Source: a virus
DNA: 53,795 nucleotides
Virus genome (UHGV): UHGV-0191815
Strand: one strand, 5' to 3'
Both the position numbers and the translations under genes were made by a program. Position 1 is the stretch's first letter; each line of letters opens with the position of its first letter. Of the stretch, positions 1,644-48,677 are shown piece after piece. The notes under the pieces were generated by a model. It was not told the DNA's origin. It saw only the letters and a list, made by a program, of their open reading frames with translations, and ran no database searches.

Positions 1644-1820
1644 TTTTGAATCCTCATTCTTGTTTGCTCATCCGGTTCATCCGGTGGCTTAAATATCCGA
1701 CAAAACCACATTTCGTATATTGACATAAATCAACAAATACATTTTGTGTAAGCAGAAAATGCAACATAGATCACAAAATGGTAGAATTATTCCGTTAATT
1801 AACATAATGGAGTCATTGCG

Positions 1821-8595: not shown

Positions 8596-10011
8596 TTAAA
8601 AGGATGCGTTATTCTGATTGTTTCGTTGGTTAAAACGGCTTGTGCGATGATTCATTGACTGAATGCACGCTGCGGCTGCGCGCGCCTGGTCGCATGGCAA
8701 GATATTACCGTTGTCATCAAACCGCTGGTAAACAGTTCCAGACTTACCATGACGGTTTTTTGACACAATGATTTCCATATATTCGCGAGCAACAGACTGT
8801 TCGTCGTAATATCCATCGCGGTAAACCATGATGATCCTGTCGGCATCTTGCTCAAGGTTGCCAGAATCACGAAGATCAGAATTATTAGGGCGCTTGTTCG
8901 GTCGCTCCTCAACGCGGCGGGACAATTGCGCCAGCGCCAACACTGGTACACGCAATTCTTTAGCCATCATCTTTAACGACCACGACAATTGCCCTACGGC
9001 GAGATCATGACGTTCGGCCTTAGCCAGCTTCATTAACCCGATATAGTCAATCATTACCATACCCAGGTTCGGGTGATCCTGCTTCATGCGTTCCGTTGTT
9101 GCGCGTATTTCCTCAACCGTTAACTGCGACGCGTCAACGATCCACACATCAAGGTTAGCAAGTGCGCTCATACCCTGGCCGACATGCGCCCAACCTTCAT
9201 CATCAAGTTTTACCGGATTGCGCAGGCAGTCAGTTGATAAATTACCAGCGCCAGCGATAGCCCGCTCAGTCATCTGATCGAGTGACATTTCAAGCGTGAA
9301 CAGCAAAACGCCAACCCGCTGATCTTTACTGCCAGGGTAAGGGCGTTCAGCGGCTGCGCGGGCAATTGTCAGCGCCAACGCAGATTTACCAGACCCAGGG
9401 CGTCCGGCGAGAAGCACCAAATCAGTAGCGTTAATGCCGCCCAACATTTCGTCGAGTGGTTCTATACCTGTTTTGATGTTGTCAGAATTGACACCGCATT
9501 CCATGCGCTTACTTAAAACATCCGTATATTCCTGTACCGCATCGCGCAACAGAACAGGAATGATCTTGTCTTTCGTTACCTTTAATTTTGAATACCGGGA
9601 ATCAAAATCTTTCATCGTCTCTTTGACGACCTCAAGCGTCCCCGTCTCCAGTTTGTAGCGCATATCGTCGATTAGTTCCAACATCTGCCGCCGCTGGTGC
9701 TCTTCACGTAGTAACTGTGCGTATCCCTTCAGGTTGGCAGCAGACGGGCACGATCGCGCCGTTTGCATCAGCGGTACAAAGTTTTCATTGCCAATCTCAT
9801 CACCTACCAGCAATGCATCTATGAGATTTCTGTTTCTGGCTTGCGCCCGGATAACTTCAAACGCACGTTTATAGAGCGGGATCGTGAACACTTCAGGATC
9901 AAGCGTGGCGAGAACATCTTGCGCGTTAGGAGTAAGACCGCCCAACAGCAGCCCGCCGATAACTGACGCCTCACGTTCCTGCCGTAGCGAGTTTATTTGC
10001 TCAGTTACCAT
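8596..10011 (-). CDS. Replicative DNA helicase, DnaB-like
   Basis: Walker A GRPGSGKSALAL; DnaB-type N-terminal domain (SVIGGLLLG...) and RecA-like C-terminal domain (...VLALAQLSR...). Confidence 0.85.
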   Translation of the reverse strand: MVTEQINSLRQEREASVIGGLLLGGLTPNAQDVLATLDPEVFTIPLYKRAFEVIRAQARNRNLIDALLVGDEIGNENFVPLMQTARSCPSAANLKGYAQLLREEHQRRQMLELIDDMRYKLETGTLEVVKETMKDFDSRYSKLKVTKDKIIPVLLRDAVQEYTDVLSKRMECGVNSDNIKTGIEPLDEMLGGINATDLVLLAGRPGSGKSALALTIARAAAERPYPGSKDQRVGVLLFTLEMSLDQMTERAIAGAGNLSTDCLRNPVKLDDEGWAHVGQGMSALANLDVWIVDASQLTVEEIRATTERMKQDHPNLGMVMIDYIGLMKLAKAERHDLAVGQLSWSLKMMAKELRVPVLALAQLSRRVEERPNKRPNNSDLRDSGNLEQDADRIIMVYRDGYYDEQSVAREYMEIIVSKNRHGKSGTVYQRFDDNGNILPCDQARAAAACIQSMNHRTSRFNQRNNQNNASF

Positions 10012-10029
10012 TATGTTATTGCCTCCGGT

Positions 10030-11148
10030 TTACAAAATGGAAAATTCAGGGTAATAAACAAATCGCCCGATTTCACCATGATCCGGGCTGTAAATTATTA
10101 CCGCCGCCAGGCGACGCGACCTCCAGCCTCCATTAGTCGAATACGCATCCTTGCCAGCTAACGTGCCGTGGTGCTCAACAATTCCTAGTGACGTTTCAAT
10201 GACTGTTTGATGGTGCAGATGCCCAGTGTGAGCGTAAACAGCAACCGACTTCCCGAAATCTTCGCGCCAGTCAGCTACGCAAGCAGACAATAAATTTTCC
10301 GGTTTTTTGATAGTGTGCCCGTGGTGGTAAGCAAGGAATGTTTTCCCGTACTGCGTGTGGTGTACGATAGTAGGTGACACATCAACCGTCACGCGCGGTT
10401 CATCTTCGTAAAAAGCAGCCAGCGCCGCACGCAGCCAAATCATACCAGACTGGTCATGATTCCCTGATAACACCTGGATTTCCACATCCTTATGATTTAG
10501 CAACATCTTTCCGACCGCCCGCCGGACAGACCGGATCGCCACATAAACAAGTTTTGCGTAGCGCGAATCGCAATCAAGAACGTGATTGCTTGATGGCGTC
10601 ACTGGTAACAATCCGTCAGTGTGAAGCAGGTCGCCACCGAGAAGTAAGACCGCTTTTTCACTCATAGGAGCAGCGCCAACAGCATAATCAAAGAAGTCAT
10701 TTAACACGCGTTCAGCGATCCCAGTGTCGTAGCTCTCGCCACATTCAGCTTTGTGAGCAAGTGCCCCGATGTGCAGGTCAAACACCGGATAAAGTGCCAG
10801 GCTTTTTTGAAAATCAATTTCAGGCACTGACACAGCCTCCGCGCGTGGTATTTCATTCGTGAAAGCGTCGCGGGCGGCTTGCATTAGCCGTTCCATTTCG
10901 TCGCTGTCACGGGCCGTTTTAATCCAGCGCATGACCGTATTGCCAGCATTATCGACAAGAACAGATTCACCAGTAACGCTAAAACCAGGAGCGCGGCGCG
11001 TGGATATTAAACCGCGTTTTGCTAGTTTTGCGCCCAGGCGTTCGACATTGCGTTTAGACATGCCATATTTTTCAGCGATCTGTTTATACGTTAAACCGTT
11101 TTGGTATTCAGCGATTAACTGCTCATCGCTGATTTTTCTTTGCGACAT
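10030..11148 (-). CDS. HTH domain fused to calcineurin-like metallophosphoesterase
   Basis: N-terminal HTH (LTYKQIAEKYGMSKRNVERL); phosphoesterase motifs DLHIG, GDLLHTDG, GNHD, HTGHLHH; start chosen at MSQRK with RBS ggagg. Confidence 0.65.
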   Translation of the reverse strand: MSQRKISDEQLIAEYQNGLTYKQIAEKYGMSKRNVERLGAKLAKRGLISTRRAPGFSVTGESVLVDNAGNTVMRWIKTARDSDEMERLMQAARDAFTNEIPRAEAVSVPEIDFQKSLALYPVFDLHIGALAHKAECGESYDTGIAERVLNDFFDYAVGAAPMSEKAVLLLGGDLLHTDGLLPVTPSSNHVLDCDSRYAKLVYVAIRSVRRAVGKMLLNHKDVEIQVLSGNHDQSGMIWLRAALAAFYEDEPRVTVDVSPTIVHHTQYGKTFLAYHHGHTIKKPENLLSACVADWREDFGKSVAVYAHTGHLHHQTVIETSLGIVEHHGTLAGKDAYSTNGGWRSRRLAAVIIYSPDHGEIGRFVYYPEFSIL

Positions 11149-11181
11149 AATGTTAATTCCTCCAGTTAACAAAATGTATAC

Positions 11182-13348: not shown

Positions 13349-13603
13349 TCATTCCTCCGGCAATGCAATATCATAAATTTCGCCGTATTCGTCAGCGCGT
13401 TTAATGAATCCTTTGCGGATTAATGAGTTTAATGCGTCAACAGTAGTATGCAGTGGCAGTTCGCAGACTTTTGCGATCTCTTCGCGTGAAGCATGTGCGC
13501 GGCCCTTGTTGTCTGCCTTTTCTGCAAACGCCATTAAGACAATTTTTTGAATCGGGCTGTTAAGTTTTACGTTCCATGCTTTGCTAATCATGTTCATACT
13601 CAT
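13349..13603 (-). CDS. Small HTH DNA-binding protein, first gene of the minus-strand early operon (Cro/CII-like position)
   Basis: MSMNMISKAWNVKLNSPIQKIVLMAFAEKADNKGRAHASREEIAKVCELPLHTTVDALNSLIRKGFI; RBS aggag 9 nt upstream of this ATG; divergent from the repressor gene. Confidence 0.55.
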   Translation of the reverse strand: MSMNMISKAWNVKLNSPIQKIVLMAFAEKADNKGRAHASREEIAKVCELPLHTTVDALNSLIRKGFIKRADEYGEIYDIALPEE

Positions 13604-13909
13604 TGTGTTTTCTCCTATGGTTAAAATGAACGCGCTGGCGGGCATCCCATTATCATTAGATAGCAGTGATTGACCGCTGAACAGATCCCGCCGTTGCGTG
13701 ATATTTGTTTTTCGCATTGCAGCGACACCTGGTTTTTAAAGAGCTTTCAAGGTATGTGCCATTTGTGCTTTCCATTATCTTTTTTCTTGCATCCTTGCAA
13801 CTATGGCCTTACCTTGTCAGCAAGTTTACAGAATGTTGTTAATAGATCAAGGATTGAAAAATACATTTTGTGACTTGCATCAAAAATTTTTAGGTTATAG
13901 GGTAGCGAT
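13604..13909. promoter_or_regulatory. Divergent immunity-region control region (candidate operators and promoters for the repressor gene and the minus-strand early operon)
   Basis: About 300 bp non-coding between divergent HTH genes; contains atacattttgtgact (13861-13875), the palindromes ttgca-tcct-tgcaa and cttg-tcag-caag, and the nut-like element. Confidence 0.5.
13713..13750 (-). promoter_or_regulatory. nut-like element on the minus-strand transcript (boxA-like GCTCTTTAAAAA + hairpin CGCTGCAATGCG)
   Basis: Reverse complement reads agCTCTTTAAAAAccaggtgtCGCTGCAATGCG; near-identical to the plus-strand element at 22441-22474. Confidence 0.45.
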
Positions 13910-14557
13910 ATGAAAACAAAATGGTATGACTTGGCAAAACAACTCATGCGGGCGCAAGGCATGAGCCAGGATTCATTGGCTGATCTTATGGGGATAACCA
14001 AAGGTGGCCTTTCTCACTGGTTGAACGGTCGCCGTGAGCCGAATCTTGAAGATATTACGCGGATCATGCGGGCGCTTGGGCGTCGGCAATTCACTGTTAC
14101 TCATGATGGTATGGTCATTGATGATTCTGTTTCTAACACGTTGCCGGGAGCGCCACCGCGTGATTTAGGTAGTTACCCGGTTGTTGACTGGAAGGACGCA
14201 GCAAACAATATGGAAGACATACGCCGATCAACATTACCACACGTTACGACTAGCGTTATTTGTTCAGATGATAGTTACTGGCTGGTTGCTAAAGGTGAAT
14301 CAATGAACGCGCCGCAAGGGTTAAGCATCCCGGCGGGTACTATGATACTTGTTGACCCGCACGCGCCAGCTATTGATGGCAAACTGGTTATAGCCCAACT
14401 GGAGGAAGGGCAGACACCGACGTTTAAACAGTTGATTACTGATGGAGGCAGAAAACTTTTGCGTTCACTTAATCCGTTGTATCCTCCGATCCCTATGAAT
14501 CCAGAATCAAAAATCATTGGCGTGGTTGTTGATGCGAAGATCGTAAACCTGCCATAA
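13910..14557 (+). CDS. CI-like prophage repressor (HTH_XRE N-terminal domain + LexA-like S24 peptidase C-terminal domain)
   Basis: HTH (SQDSLADLMGITKGGLSHWLNGRR); C-terminal S24-type region (...LVAKGESMNAPQGLSIPAGTMILVD...KLVIAQLEEGQTPTFKQL) with Ser and Lys catalytic context. Confidence 0.85.
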   Translation: MKTKWYDLAKQLMRAQGMSQDSLADLMGITKGGLSHWLNGRREPNLEDITRIMRALGRRQFTVTHDGMVIDDSVSNTLPGAPPRDLGSYPVVDWKDAANNMEDIRRSTLPHVTTSVICSDDSYWLVAKGESMNAPQGLSIPAGTMILVDPHAPAIDGKLVIAQLEEGQTPTFKQLITDGGRKLLRSLNPLYPPIPMNPESKIIGVVVDAKIVNLP

Positions 14558-14587: not shown

Positions 14588-14679
14588 GCCATAAAAACGC
14601 CAAAACGTAAACAGAAAACCGTGTTTATTGTTTAAATATCAATGGCTTATAAATTTTATAAAAAAGTATACAAAATGTG

Positions 14680-14708
14680 TTGACTGGTGTTTTTACGTGG
14701 CGTATATT
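14680..14708 (+). promoter_or_regulatory. Sigma70-type promoter for the plus-strand early operon (PL-like), with an operator-like sequence abutting the -35
   Basis: -35 TTGACT (14680-14685), 17-bp spacer, -10 TATATT (14703-14708); gTATACAAAATGTG lies at 14666-14679. Confidence 0.6.
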
Positions 14709-14962
14709 GCGAATCAAAGGAAGGATGCAGGTAACAAAATCAACTTCCTGGCACTTTAAAAATCAGGCTTAACACCTTGTCAACCGTGGAGTAACTCCCC
14801 GATGGGGGACCGAAAGCGGCACTGATAACAAGGCGCATGGGGTGTTTAAAGCGTTACATCCCCCACGAAACCGCACGCAAGGCGACGAGTCAGCTTGCTT
14901 GGAGTGAGCAGGGTCACACCGGAAACGGCGATGATTGCGGGATTAGTTGAAAGATGTTAAGC

Positions 14963-18758: not shown

Positions 18759-18857
18759 TATTGTGATTGCGATTACATAACTATACGTTTTGTGTTGTGA
18801 TCGCAAATCCGTTTTGTAAACTGAAATCGAAAGGTTTACAGCACGGAGGGAAACAAG

Positions 18858-22344: not shown

Positions 22345-22366
22345 AATTTACAAAATGGCGTCATTG

Positions 22367-22382
22367 TGTGATTTGTGTCACA
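22367..22382. promoter_or_regulatory. Perfect palindrome TGTGA-tttgtg-TCACA (CRP-consensus-like, or a phage operator)
   Basis: Read directly; lies just upstream of a candidate promoter. Confidence 0.4.
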
Positions 22383-22398
22383 TAATGGCGCTTTTCTT

Positions 22399-22427
22399 CT
22401 TGTTTACGTGTATCCATTTTGTATACT
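22399..22427 (+). promoter_or_regulatory. Candidate internal promoter (-35 cttgtt, -10 TATACT)
   Basis: -10 TATACT at 22422-22427 with a 17-bp spacer; overlaps ccattttgtatac, a copy of the recurring motif. Confidence 0.35.
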
Positions 22428-22440
22428 GCAAACAAAATAA

Positions 22441-22474
22441 ACGCTCTTTAAAAATCCGGTGGCGCTGCAATGCG
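22441..22474 (+). promoter_or_regulatory. nut-like element: boxA CGCTCTTTAAAAA + hairpin CGCTGCAATGCG
   Basis: boxA matches lambda nut boxA (CGCTCTTA) closely; the whole element is near-identical to the minus-strand copy at 13713-13750. Confidence 0.45.
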
Positions 22475-23709: not shown

Positions 23710-23888
23710 AAAACGAAATTAAAGATCTGCAAATAGATATTCAGCGCGACGAGCATGATTTAGAAACTGTGCGACAAATACAGGCTTTCCACATGCGAGA
23801 ATTGCTTGCGCTGAAAGAGCTTGAAAGAAAGCTAGTGCAGGCAATATCTGATCGCAAAAGACTGGTTGCGCGTTACTGGGGGAAATAA
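23706..23888 (+). CDS. Hypothetical protein (60 aa)
   Basis: ORF in coupled series. Confidence 0.4.
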   Translation: MKNEIKDLQIDIQRDEHDLETVRQIQAFHMRELLALKELERKLVQAISDRKRLVARYWGK

Positions 23889-24616
23889 TGAATCTGGAAT
23901 CAATTCTTAAATTCCACTTCCCAAAATCGCCGCGTTTATCAGATGAAAGCCGTGGTACGTCCCCGGATGCGCTTAATACTACGGATGCACTAACTGCCGC
24001 AGGTATGGCGCAATCGCGCGTAGAGCTTGGTTACAGTGCTTTTTTGGGGAAGATGGAACTATCACAAGCCGAAAAACATAAGGCCGTAGTTTTGCTTATA
24101 GAGCGCTTAAAGGCTATGGCAAAAGATTATGAATACGTTATTGAACTGGACGAGGCAAAACGCAATGATCTCATTATTCTTGTTGCCGTTTTCGCGTTTC
24201 GGGATTATTGCCAGAGTGCAGCGACCGAAAAAGTTTGCCCTAAGTGCGGCGGCAACGGGCTTTTACCAAATCCATATTGCGAATACACATCGACAGTTTG
24301 TTCGCGGTGCGGCGGCAAAGGCTACGTTAAAAACCATTGCCAACGTTGCAAGGGGCGCGGCGAAATACCGGATAAAGCAGCCAGTGAAGCGGCGGAAATG
24401 CCAGTGTTCAAAACGTGCCAGCACTGCGGCGGGCGCGGGTACTCGCGTTTCCCTGTAGATCTTGTCCGGCAGGCTGTTAATCAGCTTGTATTTCCGGTAA
24501 GCCGATCAACATGGTGGAAGAAATACCGCGCTTTCTATGAAGACGCCATTGCTGAGTTGTTCAAAGAAGAGGCGCGGGCTGACAACGAAATAAAACGAGT
24601 GACGCGGGGTGAATAA
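23888..24616 (+). CDS. DnaJ-type zinc-finger protein; possible late-gene regulator (Q-like position)
   Basis: Four CxxCxGxG repeats (CPKCGGNG, CSRCGGKG, CQRCKGRG, CQHCGGRG); located after ninG-rusA where lambdoid phages carry Q; function not established from sequence. Confidence 0.4.
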   Translation: MNLESILKFHFPKSPRLSDESRGTSPDALNTTDALTAAGMAQSRVELGYSAFLGKMELSQAEKHKAVVLLIERLKAMAKDYEYVIELDEAKRNDLIILVAVFAFRDYCQSAATEKVCPKCGGNGLLPNPYCEYTSTVCSRCGGKGYVKNHCQRCKGRGEIPDKAASEAAEMPVFKTCQHCGGRGYSRFPVDLVRQAVNQLVFPVSRSTWWKKYRAFYEDAIAELFKEEARADNEIKRVTRGE

Positions 24617-42189: not shown

Positions 42190-42870
42190 ATGATTCACGT
42201 TCGAACAGGACAGTTTGCGGTTGTGGTTGATGGCAGACGTTACGAATTTAATCCCTGCTTTGCTGCAATGGCTAAGATCGGCAGTGACAGGGAACTGGTC
42301 GAATACTTCGCAACGGTTCACGGTGGCAGATACCCACGGCGTATGCCGATGGATACAGACCTCCGCAATCGCATTCTGGCGCGTTGTTATGGTGAACTGG
42401 TGCAAACGTCCATACACATATTGAAATGTTGCTCAGAATGCGAAATAGGCCCGTTATTGGGCGAATGCAGCTTTACTCCTTCTGGTAAGTTGAGACTGAA
42501 ACCTGGATTGATGCCCACCAGCGATGTTATCACGCTGGCGCAACACTGCATGTTCCACGGTTTAATTGGTGACGGTCCAGAAGAAGACACTGGAGAAAAC
42601 CAGGATGGCGAGTACAAGCCCACATTCGACATCCTTGAGTATGTTTATTCTGCCGTTGCTCACCTGGGATTGTCTGAGTCTGAAGCGTGGGGCATGACAA
42701 TGACCGGATATAGGGCCGCTGTACGCGCTAAAACGCCACCAGACGAAAGAAACGAGAAAGGTAAACCAAACGTTCATATAAATAAACGTGATTATGATGA
42801 GCAAATGGGAGCGGCTAAAAGGGTGCTGGAATTAATGAAAAAACGCGAGCAAGAAAAAGCCCGGAATTAA
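42190..42870 (+). CDS. Putative tail assembly chaperone (G/GT-like position)
   Basis: Position between the tail tube gene and the tape measure gene; no frameshift evident. Confidence 0.35.
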   Translation: MIHVRTGQFAVVVDGRRYEFNPCFAAMAKIGSDRELVEYFATVHGGRYPRRMPMDTDLRNRILARCYGELVQTSIHILKCCSECEIGPLLGECSFTPSGKLRLKPGLMPTSDVITLAQHCMFHGLIGDGPEEDTGENQDGEYKPTFDILEYVYSAVAHLGLSESEAWGMTMTGYRAAVRAKTPPDERNEKGKPNVHINKRDYDEQMGAAKRVLELMKKREQEKARN

Positions 42871-42884
42871 CCGGGCCTTTATCT

Positions 42885-43187
42885 TTATTTGTATGCTGCG
42901 AATCGGCATCTTGCTTCATCAAGGTCATGAACATCGTACACGTTATCGTAAATGTAAGTTGCTACCTGTGCTTTCTGTACGTCAGTTGCGTTCGGGAACT
43001 CCATGCTTACGAAAGTCACTGCATCAACGTAGTGTTTGAACATCTTTTTGTTAACGCACAGCGCGTAAATCAATACAGCAGGCCAGCAAATCAGCGCACC
43101 AAAGAATGCCAGGAGCATATTCAGATGTTTTTTCTGAGCTACAACCATAGTTGCGACGAAGCCGATGAAGCAAATTACCAGTTCCAT
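42885..43187 (-). CDS. Membrane protein (100 aa) in reverse-oriented cassette 1
   Basis: MELVICFIGFVATMVVAQKKHLNMLLAFFGALICWPAVLIYALCV (two TM segments) then a soluble tail. Confidence 0.5.
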   Translation of the reverse strand: MELVICFIGFVATMVVAQKKHLNMLLAFFGALICWPAVLIYALCVNKKMFKHYVDAVTFVSMEFPNATDVQKAQVATYIYDNVYDVHDLDEARCRFAAYK

Positions 43188-43197
43188 GATACACCTC

Positions 43198-43305
43198 TCA
43201 ATTGCGTTTATCTTCTGTTGTCATTGCCAGCACCAGCACAGCCATCACATTAAATGCTAACCATGCTGTAATATATACATCTATAACCGTTTTGATTGCG
43301 TCCAT
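43198..43305 (-). CDS. 35-aa TM peptide (cassette 1)
   Basis: MDAIKTVIDVYITAWLAFNVMAVLVLAMTTEDKRN. Confidence 0.3.
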   Translation of the reverse strand: MDAIKTVIDVYITAWLAFNVMAVLVLAMTTEDKRN

Positions 43306-43318
43306 TCACCCGCCCCGC

Positions 43319-43405
43319 TTATTTCTTGTTTTTAAGTGCTTTCAGCATTTCTTCGATAAAGTCGGCATAATGCTCATGCTCGTTGGGTCGGTAGTAGCCT
43401 TTCAT
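43319..43405 (-). CDS. 28-aa peptide (cassette 1)
   Basis: MKGYYRPNEHEHYADFIEEMLKALKNKK; RBS gaggataag. Confidence 0.3.
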   Translation of the reverse strand: MKGYYRPNEHEHYADFIEEMLKALKNKK

Positions 43406-43574
43406 TTTCTTATCCTCTTTTGCTTCCTCCGGTTCATCCGGTCTTTTAAATCCTTTTTCTGTTTCCTGTTAGTTTTAGGGGTTTTCGCCTCCCTCGTTCC
43501 TTCGGTTGGCTGTGCCTCAAGTCTTAATCCCTTATTCCTTCGACCTTCTTTTCTCTCTCTTCCTTTGACTTCTT

Positions 43575-43614
43575 TATACAAAATGTATACGTTGAAGTGA
43601 AGACATTTTGTATA
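43575..43614. promoter_or_regulatory. Pair of inverted palindromic motifs (TATACAAAATGTATAC and ACATTTTGTATA) flanking gttgaagtgaag
   Basis: Read directly; about 40 bp upstream of the tape measure start and upstream of minus-strand cassette 1. Confidence 0.5.
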
Positions 43615-43654
43615 AAATAGGGATCTGGATCACGCTTTTTAGTGAGGTAAAATC

Positions 43655-45994: not shown

Positions 45995-45999
45995 TTAAA

Positions 46000-46030
46000 A
46001 CCCCGGTACAATGCCGGGGTTATCTTTATT
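46000..46030 (+). terminator. Terminator after the tape measure gene
   Basis: Stem accccgg / ccggggt with loop tacaatg, then T-rich tract. Confidence 0.55.
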
Positions 46031-46205
46031 CAATTTCATCATTCTTAAATTCGCCGTTTGCATAAAGCTGTAATGCGCTTATCAGTTCGTCGGCTTGCTT
46101 TTTGTCTATTACAATCATCTCGCAGTCGCTAACGATCCATAATCTTCCATCATCTTCAACACTAAGATCAATCCTTCTGCATTCTTCAGTCTCGTTAATA
46201 ATCAT
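46026..46205 (-). CDS. 59-aa acidic protein (cassette 2)
   Basis: MIINETEECRRIDLSVEDDGRLWIVSDCEMIVIDKKQADELISALQLYANGEFKNDEIE. Confidence 0.35.
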   Translation of the reverse strand: MIINETEECRRIDLSVEDDGRLWIVSDCEMIVIDKKQADELISALQLYANGEFKNDEIE

Positions 46206-46243
46206 TATAAACCTTCATTATTTTATTAATTTAGTGAATAAAT

Positions 46244-46414
46244 TTACTCAAATCTTGTATACCCTCTTTCAATTTTCCCTCCTCTTACACTTCTTGCGAA
46301 TACGGCATCTGTGTATCTGAAAAACGGTTCTTTGTATGTCTCGCCTTTACTATCCATCCATTTTAGCACCCATGCCATACGTTTTACATTGCTTTTATTT
46401 GCCGGGTTTTTCAT
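46244..46414 (-). CDS. 56-aa basic protein (cassette 2)
   Basis: MKNPANKSNVKRMAWVLKWMDSKGETYKEPFFRYTDAVFARSVRGGKIERGYTRFE. Confidence 0.35.
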   Translation of the reverse strand: MKNPANKSNVKRMAWVLKWMDSKGETYKEPFFRYTDAVFARSVRGGKIERGYTRFE

Positions 46415-46435
46415 TTTATTTTCCTCCGCAAATCA

Positions 46436-46525
46436 CAACCTGCCGTTTCTTGCTATGTAGCTGCGAGCAAACATCACCTGCCAGATGTTCCAGATCTCCC
46501 GCCATGTGAATTTATCGTCATCCAT
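46436..46525 (-). CDS. 29-aa peptide (cassette 2)
   Basis: MDDDKFTWREIWNIWQVMFARSYIARNGRL. Confidence 0.25.
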
Positions 46526-46533
46526 ATTTCACC

Positions 46534-46788
46534 TCATTTATGCGCACCTTTTACGCCACAGTGGCGGTTGTATTCCAGATGGTCAATAATTAACCACATC
46601 TTTAAATCTTCGCTGAATAACCGCCAATCGGGGTTGATGTCAAATTTATAGCCGTAGCCATCGCGTAATTTTTTGGGGTTGGCCTCTTTTTTCAGGAAAG
46701 AATTTAATAAAGCCTTGCCTTTCTTGATGATCCGTTCCTGGGCGTTTTTCTGTGCTTTCAGGTTTTTGCTAATCATTACCAATTTCAT
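46534..46788 (-). CDS. 84-aa basic protein (cassette 2)
   Basis: MKLVMISKNLKAQKNAQERIIKKGKALLNSFLKKEANPKKLRDGYGYKFDINPDWRLFSEDLKMWLIIDHLEYNRHCGVKGAHK; RBS aaaggggga. Confidence 0.5.
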   Translation of the reverse strand: MKLVMISKNLKAQKNAQERIIKKGKALLNSFLKKEANPKKLRDGYGYKFDINPDWRLFSEDLKMWLIIDHLEYNRHCGVKGAHK

Positions 46789-46826: not shown

Positions 46827-46884
46827 CTGTATACAATATGTAATTGCCGAAGTGAAGCCATTTTGAAAACTAGCTATAATCATT
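46827..46884. promoter_or_regulatory. Palindromic motif ctgTATACAATATGTAa plus candidate plus-strand promoter for the tail tip operon (-35 GTGAAG, -10 TATAAT)
   Basis: -10 TATAAT at 46875-46880 with a 17-bp spacer; motif 46830-46842; gaagtgaag box shared with the site at 43591-43600. Confidence 0.45.
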
Positions 46885-46955
46885 GTGACGAAGTTCTCAT
46901 TTTTCGCGTATAAGCGCGTAAAGATGTATGCAATATGTAACTTATAGGGGGAATC

Positions 46956-47510: not shown

Positions 47511-47516
47511 AAACAA

Positions 47517-47540
47517 CCCCGCGCGAAGCGGGGTTTTTCT
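47517..47540. terminator. Bidirectional terminator between M-orf61 and minus-strand cassette 3
   Basis: Stem ccccgc / gcgggg with an A-run upstream and a T-run downstream. Confidence 0.55.
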
Positions 47541-47772: not shown

Positions 47773-48021
47773 CTATAAGTTATCGCGCAGATAATTAACT
47801 CCTTTATCGGTGACGAACGAATGATTGACCTGGTTTTCGTCCGTCATGATGATGAATAGCTTTTCCTGCAGGTATTTCGCTTTTGGGTACAGCGTTAAAC
47901 AGACCTGGTACAGTATCCCGCGCTCAATCAGCAAATCAATAAATTCGTGCTCATGATAACCGATTAGGCGGGCGGCCTGTTTCAACGTGTACACATAATC
48001 GCCGTGATTGCGCCGCCCCAT
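47773..48021 (-). CDS. 82-aa protein with possible HTH (cassette 3)
   Basis: MGRRNHGDYVYTLKQAARLIGYHEHEFIDLLIERGILYQV... Confidence 0.5.
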   Translation of the reverse strand: MGRRNHGDYVYTLKQAARLIGYHEHEFIDLLIERGILYQVCLTLYPKAKYLQEKLFIIMTDENQVNHSFVTDKGVNYLRDNL

Positions 48022-48030
48022 GTTGCCGCC

Positions 48031-48381
48031 TTATTTATCGAATGCGCCCAGGTTATCAATGCAGAAGTCTTTCGCCGCTTTTTCGTATTCGCGTTTTGCC
48101 TCAGGATCGTCAGCCGGGAAGCCTTTTGCGTGGATTTCACCAGGGCAAGATTGATCCATAGAGTCTGCAAATTCAACATTGACATTGAAGTTAATATCTT
48201 TCGGGTTCATCTCTTCCACCTTATCCGGCACCTGGACCGGAGTAATATCAAAATCACGAGCGTTAGACCAACAGAGAAGCAATTCTCGACCTTCATCACG
48301 CGCTGCGGCATATGTATCAAACAGGCCCATGCGCTCCCATTCACATTTATCAGTCCACACGTCTAACCTGTATTTTTGCAT
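48031..48381 (-). CDS. 116-aa acidic hypothetical protein (cassette 3)
   Basis: MQKYRLDVWTDKCEWERMGLFDTYAAARDEGRELLLCWSNARDFDITPVQVPDKVEEMNPKD...; the overlapping plus-strand ORFs are Ser-rich and look like antisense artefacts. Confidence 0.55.
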   Translation of the reverse strand: MQKYRLDVWTDKCEWERMGLFDTYAAARDEGRELLLCWSNARDFDITPVQVPDKVEEMNPKDINFNVNVEFADSMDQSCPGEIHAKGFPADDPEAKREYEKAAKDFCIDNLGAFDK

Positions 48382-48388
48382 TTCGTTA

Positions 48389-48565
48389 ACCTCTCATTTG
48401 ACAGGTTCGATCTCGTACCCCAAAACGCGTTCGTCTTCAGCAAGTAAAAGTGCGTCAACCAGTGCCTCTCCTTCATCTTTATACATGGCAACAAGCATTT
48501 CCCTGCCATCCGCTAGGAACACCGTCAACCTCCACACCTTATCGTCCACATCACACCTCCGCGCC
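48389..48565 (-). CDS. 58-aa hypothetical protein (first gene of cassette 3)
   Basis: MARRCDVDDKVWRLTVFLADGREMLVAMYKDEGEALVDALLLAEDERVLGYEIEPVK; RBS gcaggg. Confidence 0.4.
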
Positions 48566-48592
48566 ATTTTGTTAACCCTGCTTCATTTTGAG

Positions 48593-48610
48593 TACAATAT
48601 ACATATTGTA
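48593..48610. promoter_or_regulatory. Perfect 8-bp inverted repeat TACAATAT-ac-ATATTGTA upstream of cassette 3 and of gene L
   Basis: Read directly; a candidate -35 TTGATC for the minus-strand cassette lies nearby. Confidence 0.5.
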
Positions 48611-48677
48611 AAAAACGCGATCAACCGTTCTGGTATGGTTTAGTGTGATGGCGATCACAAAATGACAAGGTGATAAA

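Follow-up and report, generated by a model that had tools for sequence, protein, structure and literature searches.

In classical lambdoid phages the operators of the CI repressor are confined to OL and OR. Lambda operators combine a consensus half with a non-consensus half, and OR1 and OR2 are 24-25 bp apart. In phage P1, a plasmid prophage, operators of the C1 repressor are scattered genome-wide and serve many operons; they are asymmetric 17-bp sites to which C1 binds as a monomer. The stoperators of mycobacteriophages L5 and Bxb1, in work credited to Brown et al. 1997 and Jain and Hatfull 2000, are reportedly asymmetric 13-bp sites of strict orientation; they are spread over both genome arms, many of them in short gaps within operons, and block elongation when bound by the one immunity repressor. 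For phage 933W the repressor sites have been found experimentally to be 15 bp long (7 + 1 + 7), with positions 2-5 decisive and A-C at positions 4-5 (PMC3317979). The mEpimmI group of Escherichia coli phages, described in 2025, is a single immunity group reported to be as frequent as lambdoid phages in human faecal samples; its members have one common immunity repressor, a Q-like protein and an N-like antiterminator, Gp17, that acts at three nut sites (PMC11893012). The paper on the group does not describe operator sequences (PMC11893012). Here we analyze the virus genome UHGV-0191815, a stretch of 53,795 nucleotides referred to below as the window, and a family of short palindromes dispersed in it, including an inverted pair at 43575-43614 between a reverse-oriented gene cassette and the tape-measure gene. 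Comparison of sequences leads us to believe that the motif is probably the 15-bp operator of this phage's lambda-like CI repressor (13910-14557), and that CI probably controls the reverse cassettes in the tail region directly, as well as promoters inside the early operons.

The window (53.8 kb) is the essentially complete, circularly permuted genome of a temperate siphophage of the mEpimmI group, with 85-95% identity to mEp044, mEp554, mEp010, mEp021, mEp515, mEp013 and MagusPhagus. Since it is cut inside the tail host-specificity gene J (ends 1-1363 and ∼50603-53795), the record is a circular permutation; its ends carry no host flanks, i.e. it is not a prophage within host DNA.

An unbiased k-mer screen of the whole window against an order-3 Markov expectation gave CATTTTGT as the most over-represented 8-mer (19 copies versus 3.1 expected, p ∼9e-10) and CATTTTGTA as the top 9-mer. 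A few of the 19 copies are coincidental start-codon contexts such as AACAAAATGG, and 12 are non-coding. Six copies of ACAAAATGT were present where 1.06 were expected, a number reached in 0 of 100 shuffles. With up to one mismatch allowed, TACAAAATGTA occurs 11 times (1.7 expected) and CATTTTGTATA 13 times (1.8 expected). The eight motif strings quoted in a first-pass annotation of this DNA were all found where it had placed them, and with these counts the motif stands well above chance. In its full form the motif is a 15-bp pseudo-palindrome, TATAC-N5-GTATA, read as 7 + 1 + 7. One half, TATACAAAATG, is near-invariant; the other is weaker and variable (GTATA, GGAGT, GGATT or GTAAC). The centers of the half-sites are 10 bp apart, a geometry that suits a helix-turn-helix dimer. 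The initial idea of a 9-bp core, ACA-N3-TGT, was given up for the 15-bp frame after comparison with relatives.

A symmetric half-site position weight matrix was built from the window's own sites. When the window was scanned with it, 16 sites reached 12 bits or more, compared with an expectation of 2.5, and 10 of these reached 14 bits or more, compared with 0.5. Part of this enrichment is circular, since the window also served to train the matrix; this does not affect the k-mer statistics or the scans of other phages. Sites were classified by hand, since the greedy map of open reading frames (ORFs) was too crude and its spurious ORFs cover real gaps; on this basis, 14 of the 16 top-scoring sites lie outside coding sequence.

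Three other explanations were tried and rejected. A motif acting in RNA or at the level of translation was considered for the several copies located 5-10 nt 5′ of ribosome-binding sites. At this position some genes have ACAAAATGT and others ACATTTTGT, as would be expected if double-stranded DNA, and not RNA, were recognized. A mini-ORF starting at the ATG inside the motif was discarded, this ATG being absent in several relatives. For an extended -10 (TGn) promoter the TG is one base off register, except at 1781-1789 upstream of the tail-fibre gene.

The case for CI comes from phages that have a related repressor. The window CI is a homologue of lambda CI (PDB 3bdn, E = 2.5e-19, residues 15-208), with an N-terminal helix-turn-helix and an S24/LexA-like oligomerization domain at the C terminus; its homologue in mEp021 confers immunity, and the domains have been reported as well (PMC11893012). 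Homologous N-terminal domains (42-56% identity) are found in ENT1 (55.7%), a Klebsiella phage (53.6%), phage L (52.2%), epsilon34, Nil2-type Stx phages, Proteus phage Pm34 and the IMG/VR loci L096 and L098, all of which are otherwise unrelated to the window phage; unlike the mEpimmI phages, epsilon34, L, Nil2, Pm34 and ENT1 have P22-like or lambda-like backbones. These distant homologues have the same or nearly the same N-terminal arm, MKTKWYDLAK, and recognition helix, TKGxxSHWLN, the helix being TKGGLSHWLNGRR in the window CI and SKGAVGHWMTGKR, TKGAVSHWLNGRR or TKGAVSHWLNARR in other phages. The window-trained matrix found the same type of site, in the same 15-bp frame, in the cro-cI gap of every such phage examined. 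Most gaps contain three sites, spaced 33-34 and 25-27 bp apart; those of ENT1 are TATACGTTTTGTATT, TATACGAATTGTGGC and TATACAACTTGTATC, and those of phage L are AATACATTTCGTACT, AATACAATATGTGTG and AATACATCTCGTAAT. Two sites were found in Pm34 and L096, and Nil2 has one above threshold and two recognized by eye. Positions 43576-43588 of the window (ATACAAAATGTAT) match exactly the epsilon34 operator consensus WTACRAWWTGTAT, itself a prediction by the authors of the genome paper (PMC2629481). The motif is homologous to these operator regions, and the operator type co-varies with the DNA-binding domain of CI.

ENT1 was scanned over its whole length (48 kb), and the other phages with a related CI in the neighborhood of cI. 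In ENT1, matches of at least 11 bits form two clusters flanking cI, the ordinary OL/OR pattern, with one marginal match of 11.2 bits elsewhere. In contrast, mEp044 and mEp021 have 16 and 15 dispersed sites, respectively, of at least 12 bits (2.4 expected), and in the window at least nine further loci carry sites beyond OL and OR. The confinement in ENT1 and the dispersal in mEp044 and mEp021 argue that the motif is a CI-type operator and that its dispersal is peculiar to the mEpimmI group.

A different binder, either the 84-aa winged-helix HTH_36 protein encoded at 13349-13603 in the role of a Cro analogue or a host factor, appears unlikely to us. A second binder is expected because Cro and CI share operators in lambdoid phages; no Cro homologue was found in the window, the HTH_36 gene is the first protein-coding gene after nutL in the leftward early operon, and a Cro-like shut-off would fit cassettes that are on in lysogens. 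However, the motif tracks the type of CI N-terminal domain over unrelated backbones that have ordinary Cro proteins, and the HTH_36 protein matches N-terminal domains of replication initiators; its gene is followed by a separate O-like gene. As for host factors, none of the E. coli regulators considered (LexA, EvgA, GadE, TyrR, NsrR and others) is known to have a consensus that fits the motif. The first-pass annotation had named CI and two helix-turn-helix proteins as candidate binders. CI fits, whereas 13349..13603 is replication-initiator-like and 47773..48021 encodes a KilAC antirepressor-type fragment.

We also compared the sites among close relatives, using loci fetched from IMG/VR (45 at the tape-measure gene, 44 at cI and 16 at the lipoprotein gene) and most of the genomes of mEp044 and mEp021. 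The motif sites are at the same positions in about 45 IMG/VR relatives, mEp044 and mEp021, including the copies 5′ of the minor tail, tail-fibre and helicase genes and of nutR2. Upstream of the tape-measure gene, CATTTTGTATA is exact in 45 of 45 loci, and none of them has more than one mismatch in the inverted left copy, TATACAAAATG; the flanks and the sequence between the two copies are variable. Beside the rightward early promoter, AAAAAGTATACAAAATG is invariant across all cI loci compared.

The spacing of the sites is also informative. Among 15 pairs of sites at most 80 bp apart, five are 24-25 bp apart (43575/43600, 46830/46855, 18782/18806, 10005/10029 and 11142/11166), and nearly all other distances occur once. 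Spacing of about 24 bp is expected for pairwise cooperative binding. In an operator-anchored promoter test, the -10 hexamer was placed on the terminal TATA of the operator and a -35 hexamer with at least 4 of 6 matches was sought 16-18 bp upstream. Such a -35 element was found for 8 of 20 candidates, compared with a background of 12.7%. The clearest cases are both early promoters, the internal promoter at 18.8 kb and the leftward promoters of three tail-region cassettes (Table 1). The site at the -10 element, O1, overlaps the hexamer because the last four bases of the operator, TATA, are the first four of the hexamer. A second site lies over the -35 element (O2) at the rightward early promoter, the internal early promoter and cassettes 1 and 2, while the leftward early promoter and cassette 3 have the -10 site only.

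This geometry can also be read without a regulator, the motif being only a shared sigma-70 promoter element (CATTTTG + TAnnnT, -10-proximal) copied between junctions. The TATA of the strong half is always part of a -10-like hexamer, a suitably spaced -35 element accompanies several sites, and the junctions have further sequence in common, e.g. GAAGTGAAG. Because the strong half-site supplies the first four -10 bases, the suggestion of a shared promoter architecture, made by the first-pass annotation as one of two readings, is true as a description. As a full account we consider it improbable. Conservation is higher in the seven spacer bases than in the -35 elements; the sites point either way, some without a promoter 5′ of ribosome-binding sites and some abutting a -35 element (13860 and 14667); in phages with a related CI, the operator clusters on either side of cI consist of this motif; and there is no promoter rationale for pairing at 24-25 bp. 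The other of the two readings, a repressor operator through which the cassettes are wired to the prophage repressor, is the better supported by the sites in related cro-cI gaps, the clusters of ENT1 and a spacing and placement at the -10 and -35 elements like those of lambda OR1 and OR2.

Table 1. Positions of candidate operators, predicted promoters and associated features in the window (operators are matches to the 15-bp motif)
Feature	Coordinates	Strand	Score (bits)	Remarks
Operator pair	18782-18796 + 18806-18820		12.2 and 12.4	24 bp apart; internal early-operon promoter TTGTGA-16-TAAACT
Operator TATCCATTTTGTATA	22411..22425		16.6	Promoter-like TTGTTT-16-TATACT; terminator before, nutR2 after
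Operator-like site AATACATATCGTAAA	15346..15360		13.9	Directly after N-like gene
Site pair	10005-10019 + 10029-10043		11.4 and 16.1	24 bp apart; brackets ribosome-binding site of helicase gene
Site pair	11142-11156 + 11166-11180		9.1 and 15.8	24 bp apart; brackets ribosome-binding site, gene 10030-11148
Operator TATACAAAATGTATA	43575..43589		18.1	O1 (overlaps -10) of leftward cassette-1 promoter; best site in genome
Operator AAGACATTTTGTATA	43600..43614		14.7	O2 (over -35) of leftward cassette-1 promoter; 25 bp from 43575
Leftward cassette-1 promoter TTCACT-17-TATAAA	43573..43601	-		Predicted by operator-anchored promoter test
Reverse cassette 1	42885..43405	-		28-aa ORF (43319-43405) and 100-aa ORF (42885-43187)
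Terminator-like hairpin	42859..42876			3′ end of cassette 1
Operator TATACAATATGTAAT	46830..46844		17.2	O1 position, leftward cassette-2 promoter
Operator AAGCCATTTTGAAAA	46855..46869		9.6	...GTAAA in most relatives; 25 bp from 46830
Operator TATGCAATATGTAAC	46927..46941		11.8	TATACAAAATGTAAC in relatives; directly 5′ of ribosome-binding site of minor tail gene
Leftward cassette-2 promoter TTCACT-17-TATACA	46828..46856	-		Predicted by operator-anchored promoter test
Reverse cassette 2	46026..46788	-		ParE-like toxin gene (46534-46788) and two small ORFs
Bidirectional terminator	45999..46021			Tape-measure gene/cassette 2
Operator TATACATATTGTAAA	48598..48612		17.9	O1 position, leftward cassette-3 promoter
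Leftward cassette-3 promoter TTGATC-17-TATATT	48596..48624	-		Predicted by operator-anchored promoter test
Reverse cassette 3	47773..48567	-		57-aa and 116-aa ORFs and 82-aa KilAC-domain (antirepressor-type) protein
Bidirectional terminator	47515..47535			Downstream of 3′ end of cassette 3
Operator AATACATTTTGTGTA	1736..1750		15.5	Between reverse lipoprotein gene (1395-1643) and tail-fibre gene
OR1-like operator TTTACAGAATGTTGT	13825..13839			TTTACAAAATGG in many relatives; overlaps spacer/-10 of leftward early promoter
Leftward early promoter TTGATC-16-TAAACT	13822..13849	-		To nutL and replication genes; conserved
OR2-like operator AATACATTTTGTGAC	13860..13874		12.6	35 bp from OR1-like site
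cI repressor gene	13910..14557	+		Helix-turn-helix N-terminal and lambda-CI-like C-terminal domain
Operator TATACAAAATGTGTT	14667..14681		15.5	Last two bases overlap -35 TTGACT
Tentative weak operator-like site TTTACGTGGCGTATA	14692..14706		5.8	25 bp downstream of 14667
Rightward early promoter TTGACT-17-TATATT	14680..14708	+		To nutR1 and N-like antiterminator gene

The pair at 43575-43614, which the first-pass annotation had assigned to the immunity region, lies instead between cassette 1 and the tape-measure gene. Its right-hand operator also coincides in part with a possible -10 element for rightward transcription, TATAAA. To the left of the 43575/43600 pair, the 805-bp sequences of 46 genomes form at least 10 clusters that encode different proteins; the control region itself is constant. 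The cargo at the position of cassette 1 (loci L004-L048) consists mostly of signal-peptide proteins or proteins with lipoprotein signals. Many cargo clusters also carry a conserved ORF of 27-29 aa, of the type MK..YRPNEHE.YADFIEEMLK.LK. At cassette 2, operator 46855..46869 falls in the spacer of a rightward promoter, GTGAAG-17-TATAAT. Weaker look-alikes of the cassette-3 operator are present at 48561, 48580 and 48654, and further weak sites near 1736..1750 are at 1705-1719 (10.6 bits) and 1770-1784 (5.3 bits). The product of the lipoprotein cassette is a superinfection-exclusion lipoprotein (PMC11893012).

Hairpin terminators bound the four reverse cassettes (42859, 45999, 47515 and 1369), and three of the four are bidirectional. 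An identical 21-bp terminator hairpin, AACCCCGCGCGAAGCGGGGTT, occurs in opposite orientation at 1369-1389 and 47515-47535, in each case close to or at the 3′ end of a different cassette (chance expectation, 0), and the terminator at 45999-46021 starts and finishes with the same AACCCCG...CGGGGTT. The cassettes thus seem to share a terminator scaffold besides the operator/promoter scaffold. The 5′ leaders of the lipoprotein cassette and cassette 1 also have an identical hairpin sequence, CCGGATGAACCGG (1672-1684 and 43429-43441), ∼30-45 nt upstream of the start codons and within leaders that are alike around it; the leader may have been duplicated, or the two cassettes may have a post-transcriptional element in common.

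With hypervariable cargo beside a constant operator pair and identical terminator hairpins flanking different cassettes, the motif blocks could be regarded as recombination boundaries, that is, short homologies for cassette swapping whose regulatory look is incidental. We think this very improbable as the primary explanation, since it accounts neither for the palindromic form and the pairing at 24-25 bp nor for the immunity-region copies and the match to operator regions of phages with a related CI. It is compatible with an operator function and secondary to it. The inverted pair at 43575-43614 might alternatively act in the late transcript as a hairpin that influences RNA processing or stability. 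The 54-nt stretch 43568-43621 does fold into a 14-bp hairpin (-16.2 kcal/mol, z = -4.9; opposite strand z = -5.2). Such a hairpin can form in either transcript because the two operators are inverted. In contrast, other pairs do not fold (z = 0.2 and -0.3), and single copies are equally conserved, so we give this explanation hardly any credence. No known RNA families or tRNAs were found in the window.

In the immunity region, pseudo-symmetric operators overlap -10 or -35 elements of the early promoters flanking cI (13825, 13860, 14667 and the weak 14692, which overlaps both the spacer and the -10 element of the rightward early promoter). The first-pass annotation had described two immunity-region copies as abutting the -35 elements of the divergent early promoters. 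This is correct for 14666-14679, next to TTGACT of the rightward early promoter; the copy at 13861-13875 is next to TTGCAT, which belongs to a rightward promoter for cI, and the copy of the leftward early promoter, at 13825-13839, had not been listed. The putative cI promoter, read by hand as the PRM-like TTGCAT-17-TAGGGT, would start at the cI ATG, and together with the 13860 site would form an OR2/PRM-like arrangement. The OR pair is 35 bp apart here compared with 33-34 bp in relatives. The leftward transcript leads to nutL as described (PMC11893012).

The remaining sites lie in the early operons. The 18782/18806 pair is conserved in mEp044 and mEp021. Close to operator 22411..22425 there is a second site at 22347-22361. 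The copy at 22414-22426, previously thought to mark a cassette junction, lies in the early right operon, between the terminator and nutR2. Within 22357-22473 a terminator with a 16-bp stem (22357-22392) is followed by the operator-bearing promoter-like site and then by nutR2, which is nearly identical to nutL (GCTCTTTAAAAAYCMGGTGKCGCTGCAATGCG). This order suggests that the third nut site serves transcripts from its own, putatively CI-controlled promoter. The operator-anchored test detected no promoter at the 10005/10029 pair. A repeated initiation region, GGAGG...AACAT(A/T)ATG (10005-10019, 11142-11156 and 1799-1813), is itself operator-like, and in two genes it is exactly 24 bp from a strong operator-like site. 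Altogether, copies at 10029, 11166, 15346, 18782, 18806, 22347, 46855 and 46927 were added to those known from the first-pass annotation.

Some further features of the genome were noted. A strong operator-like sequence, TATTCATTATGTAAA (27212-27226, 14.9 bits), falls within a small coding gene (27114-27329), and mEp044 has the identical sequence. It may function as an intragenic site, or it could have arisen by chance and persisted because the coding sequence is conserved. The most over-represented 10-mer of the window, AGAAAGCGCC, has seven copies on both strands versus 0.1 expected (15945, 16478, 19860, 22739, 31197, 45634 and 50724), with flanks that lack extended similarity. Just upstream of the lysis genes, a PR′-like late promoter, TTGTGG-17-TAAAAT, precedes a strong terminator by ∼25 nt (29811-29884), an arrangement that looks like a Q-dependent late start. 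The Q-like gene (23888-24616) is ∼5 kb upstream of it and not adjacent as in lambda. A role of the motif as a Q-binding element was rejected, since this promoter and terminator are without the motif; for the same reason late transcription needs no promoters at the cassette junctions.

Compared with the systems described above, the locus is lambda-like in several respects. The domain plan of CI is the same, helix-turn-helix at the N terminus and lambda-type at the C terminus, and each pseudo-symmetric operator combines a consensus half with a non-consensus one; O1 shares four bases with the -10 element and O2 overlaps the -35 element. The sequence GTGTTGACT reads here as it does at lambda OR2/PR. 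Antitermination by N-like and Q-like proteins is a further similarity (PMC11893012). Unlike in lambda, the sites are 15 bp and not 17 bp long, two are recognizable per promoter of the immunity region, no Cro homologue was found, and cI lies between both early promoters, co-oriented with the operon of the N-like gene. The 933W sites have the same 15-bp frame, with A4-C5 as in TATAC; in contrast to the window, the 933W half-site has G at position 2, the repressor is non-cooperative and sites are present at OR and OL only. As with the stoperators, there are many dispersed sites, many of them in short intergenic gaps within operons; unlike stoperators, they have a pseudo-palindromic form and no single orientation, frequently come in pairs and lie mostly on promoters. 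The likeness to P1 C1 is that one immunity repressor would serve many separate operons through scattered operators, although the proteins are unrelated and the regulatory plan is different.

The reverse cassettes have the structure of morons, including the 'ant moron' of P22 and epsilon34: each has its own promoter and terminator and carries variable cargo between conserved late genes (PMC2629481). Classical morons are expressed from a repressed prophage; unlike these, the cassettes of the window have promoters with operators of the main repressor's type, and an operator placed over the -10 element argues against expression from a repressed prophage. The immI region of P22, in contrast, is under its own repressors, Mnt and Arc.

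From the operator comparisons we infer that CI binds the sites, and also the direction and timing of regulation, as follows. CI dimers would bind the 15-bp sites through their N-terminal helix-turn-helix domains, and the lambda-type C-terminal domains would make the binding of two dimers cooperative wherever sites are spaced by 24-25 bp. With O1 over the -10 and O2 over the -35 element, bound CI would occlude RNA polymerase. Besides the immunity region, CI would occupy the internal early promoter at 18.8 kb, the promoter before nutR2 at 22.4 kb, the 5′ promoter regions of the four reverse cassettes and promoter-less intergenic gaps of the replication operon, where pairs bracketing ribosome-binding sites may be roadblocks or looping anchors. 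In a lysogen CI would silence the early, internal (18.8 and 22.4 kb) and cassette promoters and any rightward sigma-70 promoters restarting transcription of tail genes. Upon infection or loss of CI, the early promoters would become active and, at the same time, the cassette and internal promoters; at a later stage, late transcripts antiterminated by Q and starting at ∼29.8 kb would cross the cassettes in the opposite direction.

Several observations weigh against this interpretation, in addition to the circularity of the matrix. The immunity-region sites score 10.6 and 12.6 bits compared with 17-18 bits for the cassette sites, and at the rightward early promoter the candidate for O1 is a weak match (5.8 bits). 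The matrix scan found no third OR site, two sites being recognized per region, and neither a tripartite OR or OL nor a divergent cro was recognized. Most promoters read by hand are below the threshold of a generic promoter scanner (9 of 12 matches), which only two reach; the others are weaker matches and putative. Conserved palindromes lie just downstream of both early promoters, CTTG-N4-CAAG (CTTGTCAGCAAG, 13812-13823) and TTGCGAATCAA (14706-14716). The latter is followed by AAGG, and the initial transcribed regions of the two promoters are alike (TTGC-N3/4-CAARGG-AAGG); the palindromes may be a second regulatory site or a shared leader. Finally, the cargo of the cassettes is mostly signal-peptide proteins and lipoproteins, including the superinfection-exclusion lipoprotein. 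Secreted or exclusion-type genes might be expected to be on in lysogens, which is awkward with repression by CI. The T5 protein Llp is expressed in the early lytic or establishment phase, and such timing would reconcile exclusion cargo with CI repression.

We believe that the sequence comparisons support a lambda-type CI-operator switch with dispersed operators, which resembles P1 C1 and the stoperators in logic and not in parts. For the mEpimmI phages there is now a concrete, testable candidate operator, TATAC-N5-GTATA, with a map of its positions. If CI binds these sites, the immunity repressor would directly control variable cargo (lipoproteins and other secreted proteins, a ParE-like toxin and an antirepressor-type fragment) as well as internal promoters far from the immunity region. 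This would change the prediction of which prophage genes are expressed in lysogens and would provide a lambda-type model for dispersed operators, long-range looping and antisense cassettes in a late operon. More tentatively, and with the balance of our judgment somewhat against it, there may be a genome-wide CI regulon with at least 10 operator clusters, in which the reverse cassettes of the tail region are 'anti-morons' and the promoter-less pairs are stoperator-like roadblocks or anchors of CI octamer loops. If so, an 'anti-moron' would be silent in the lysogen and an immediate-early antisense unit upon infection or induction, and the mEpimmI regulon would correspond, in gram-negative hosts and with a lambda-type CI, to the stoperators of mycobacteriophages and the C1 network of P1.

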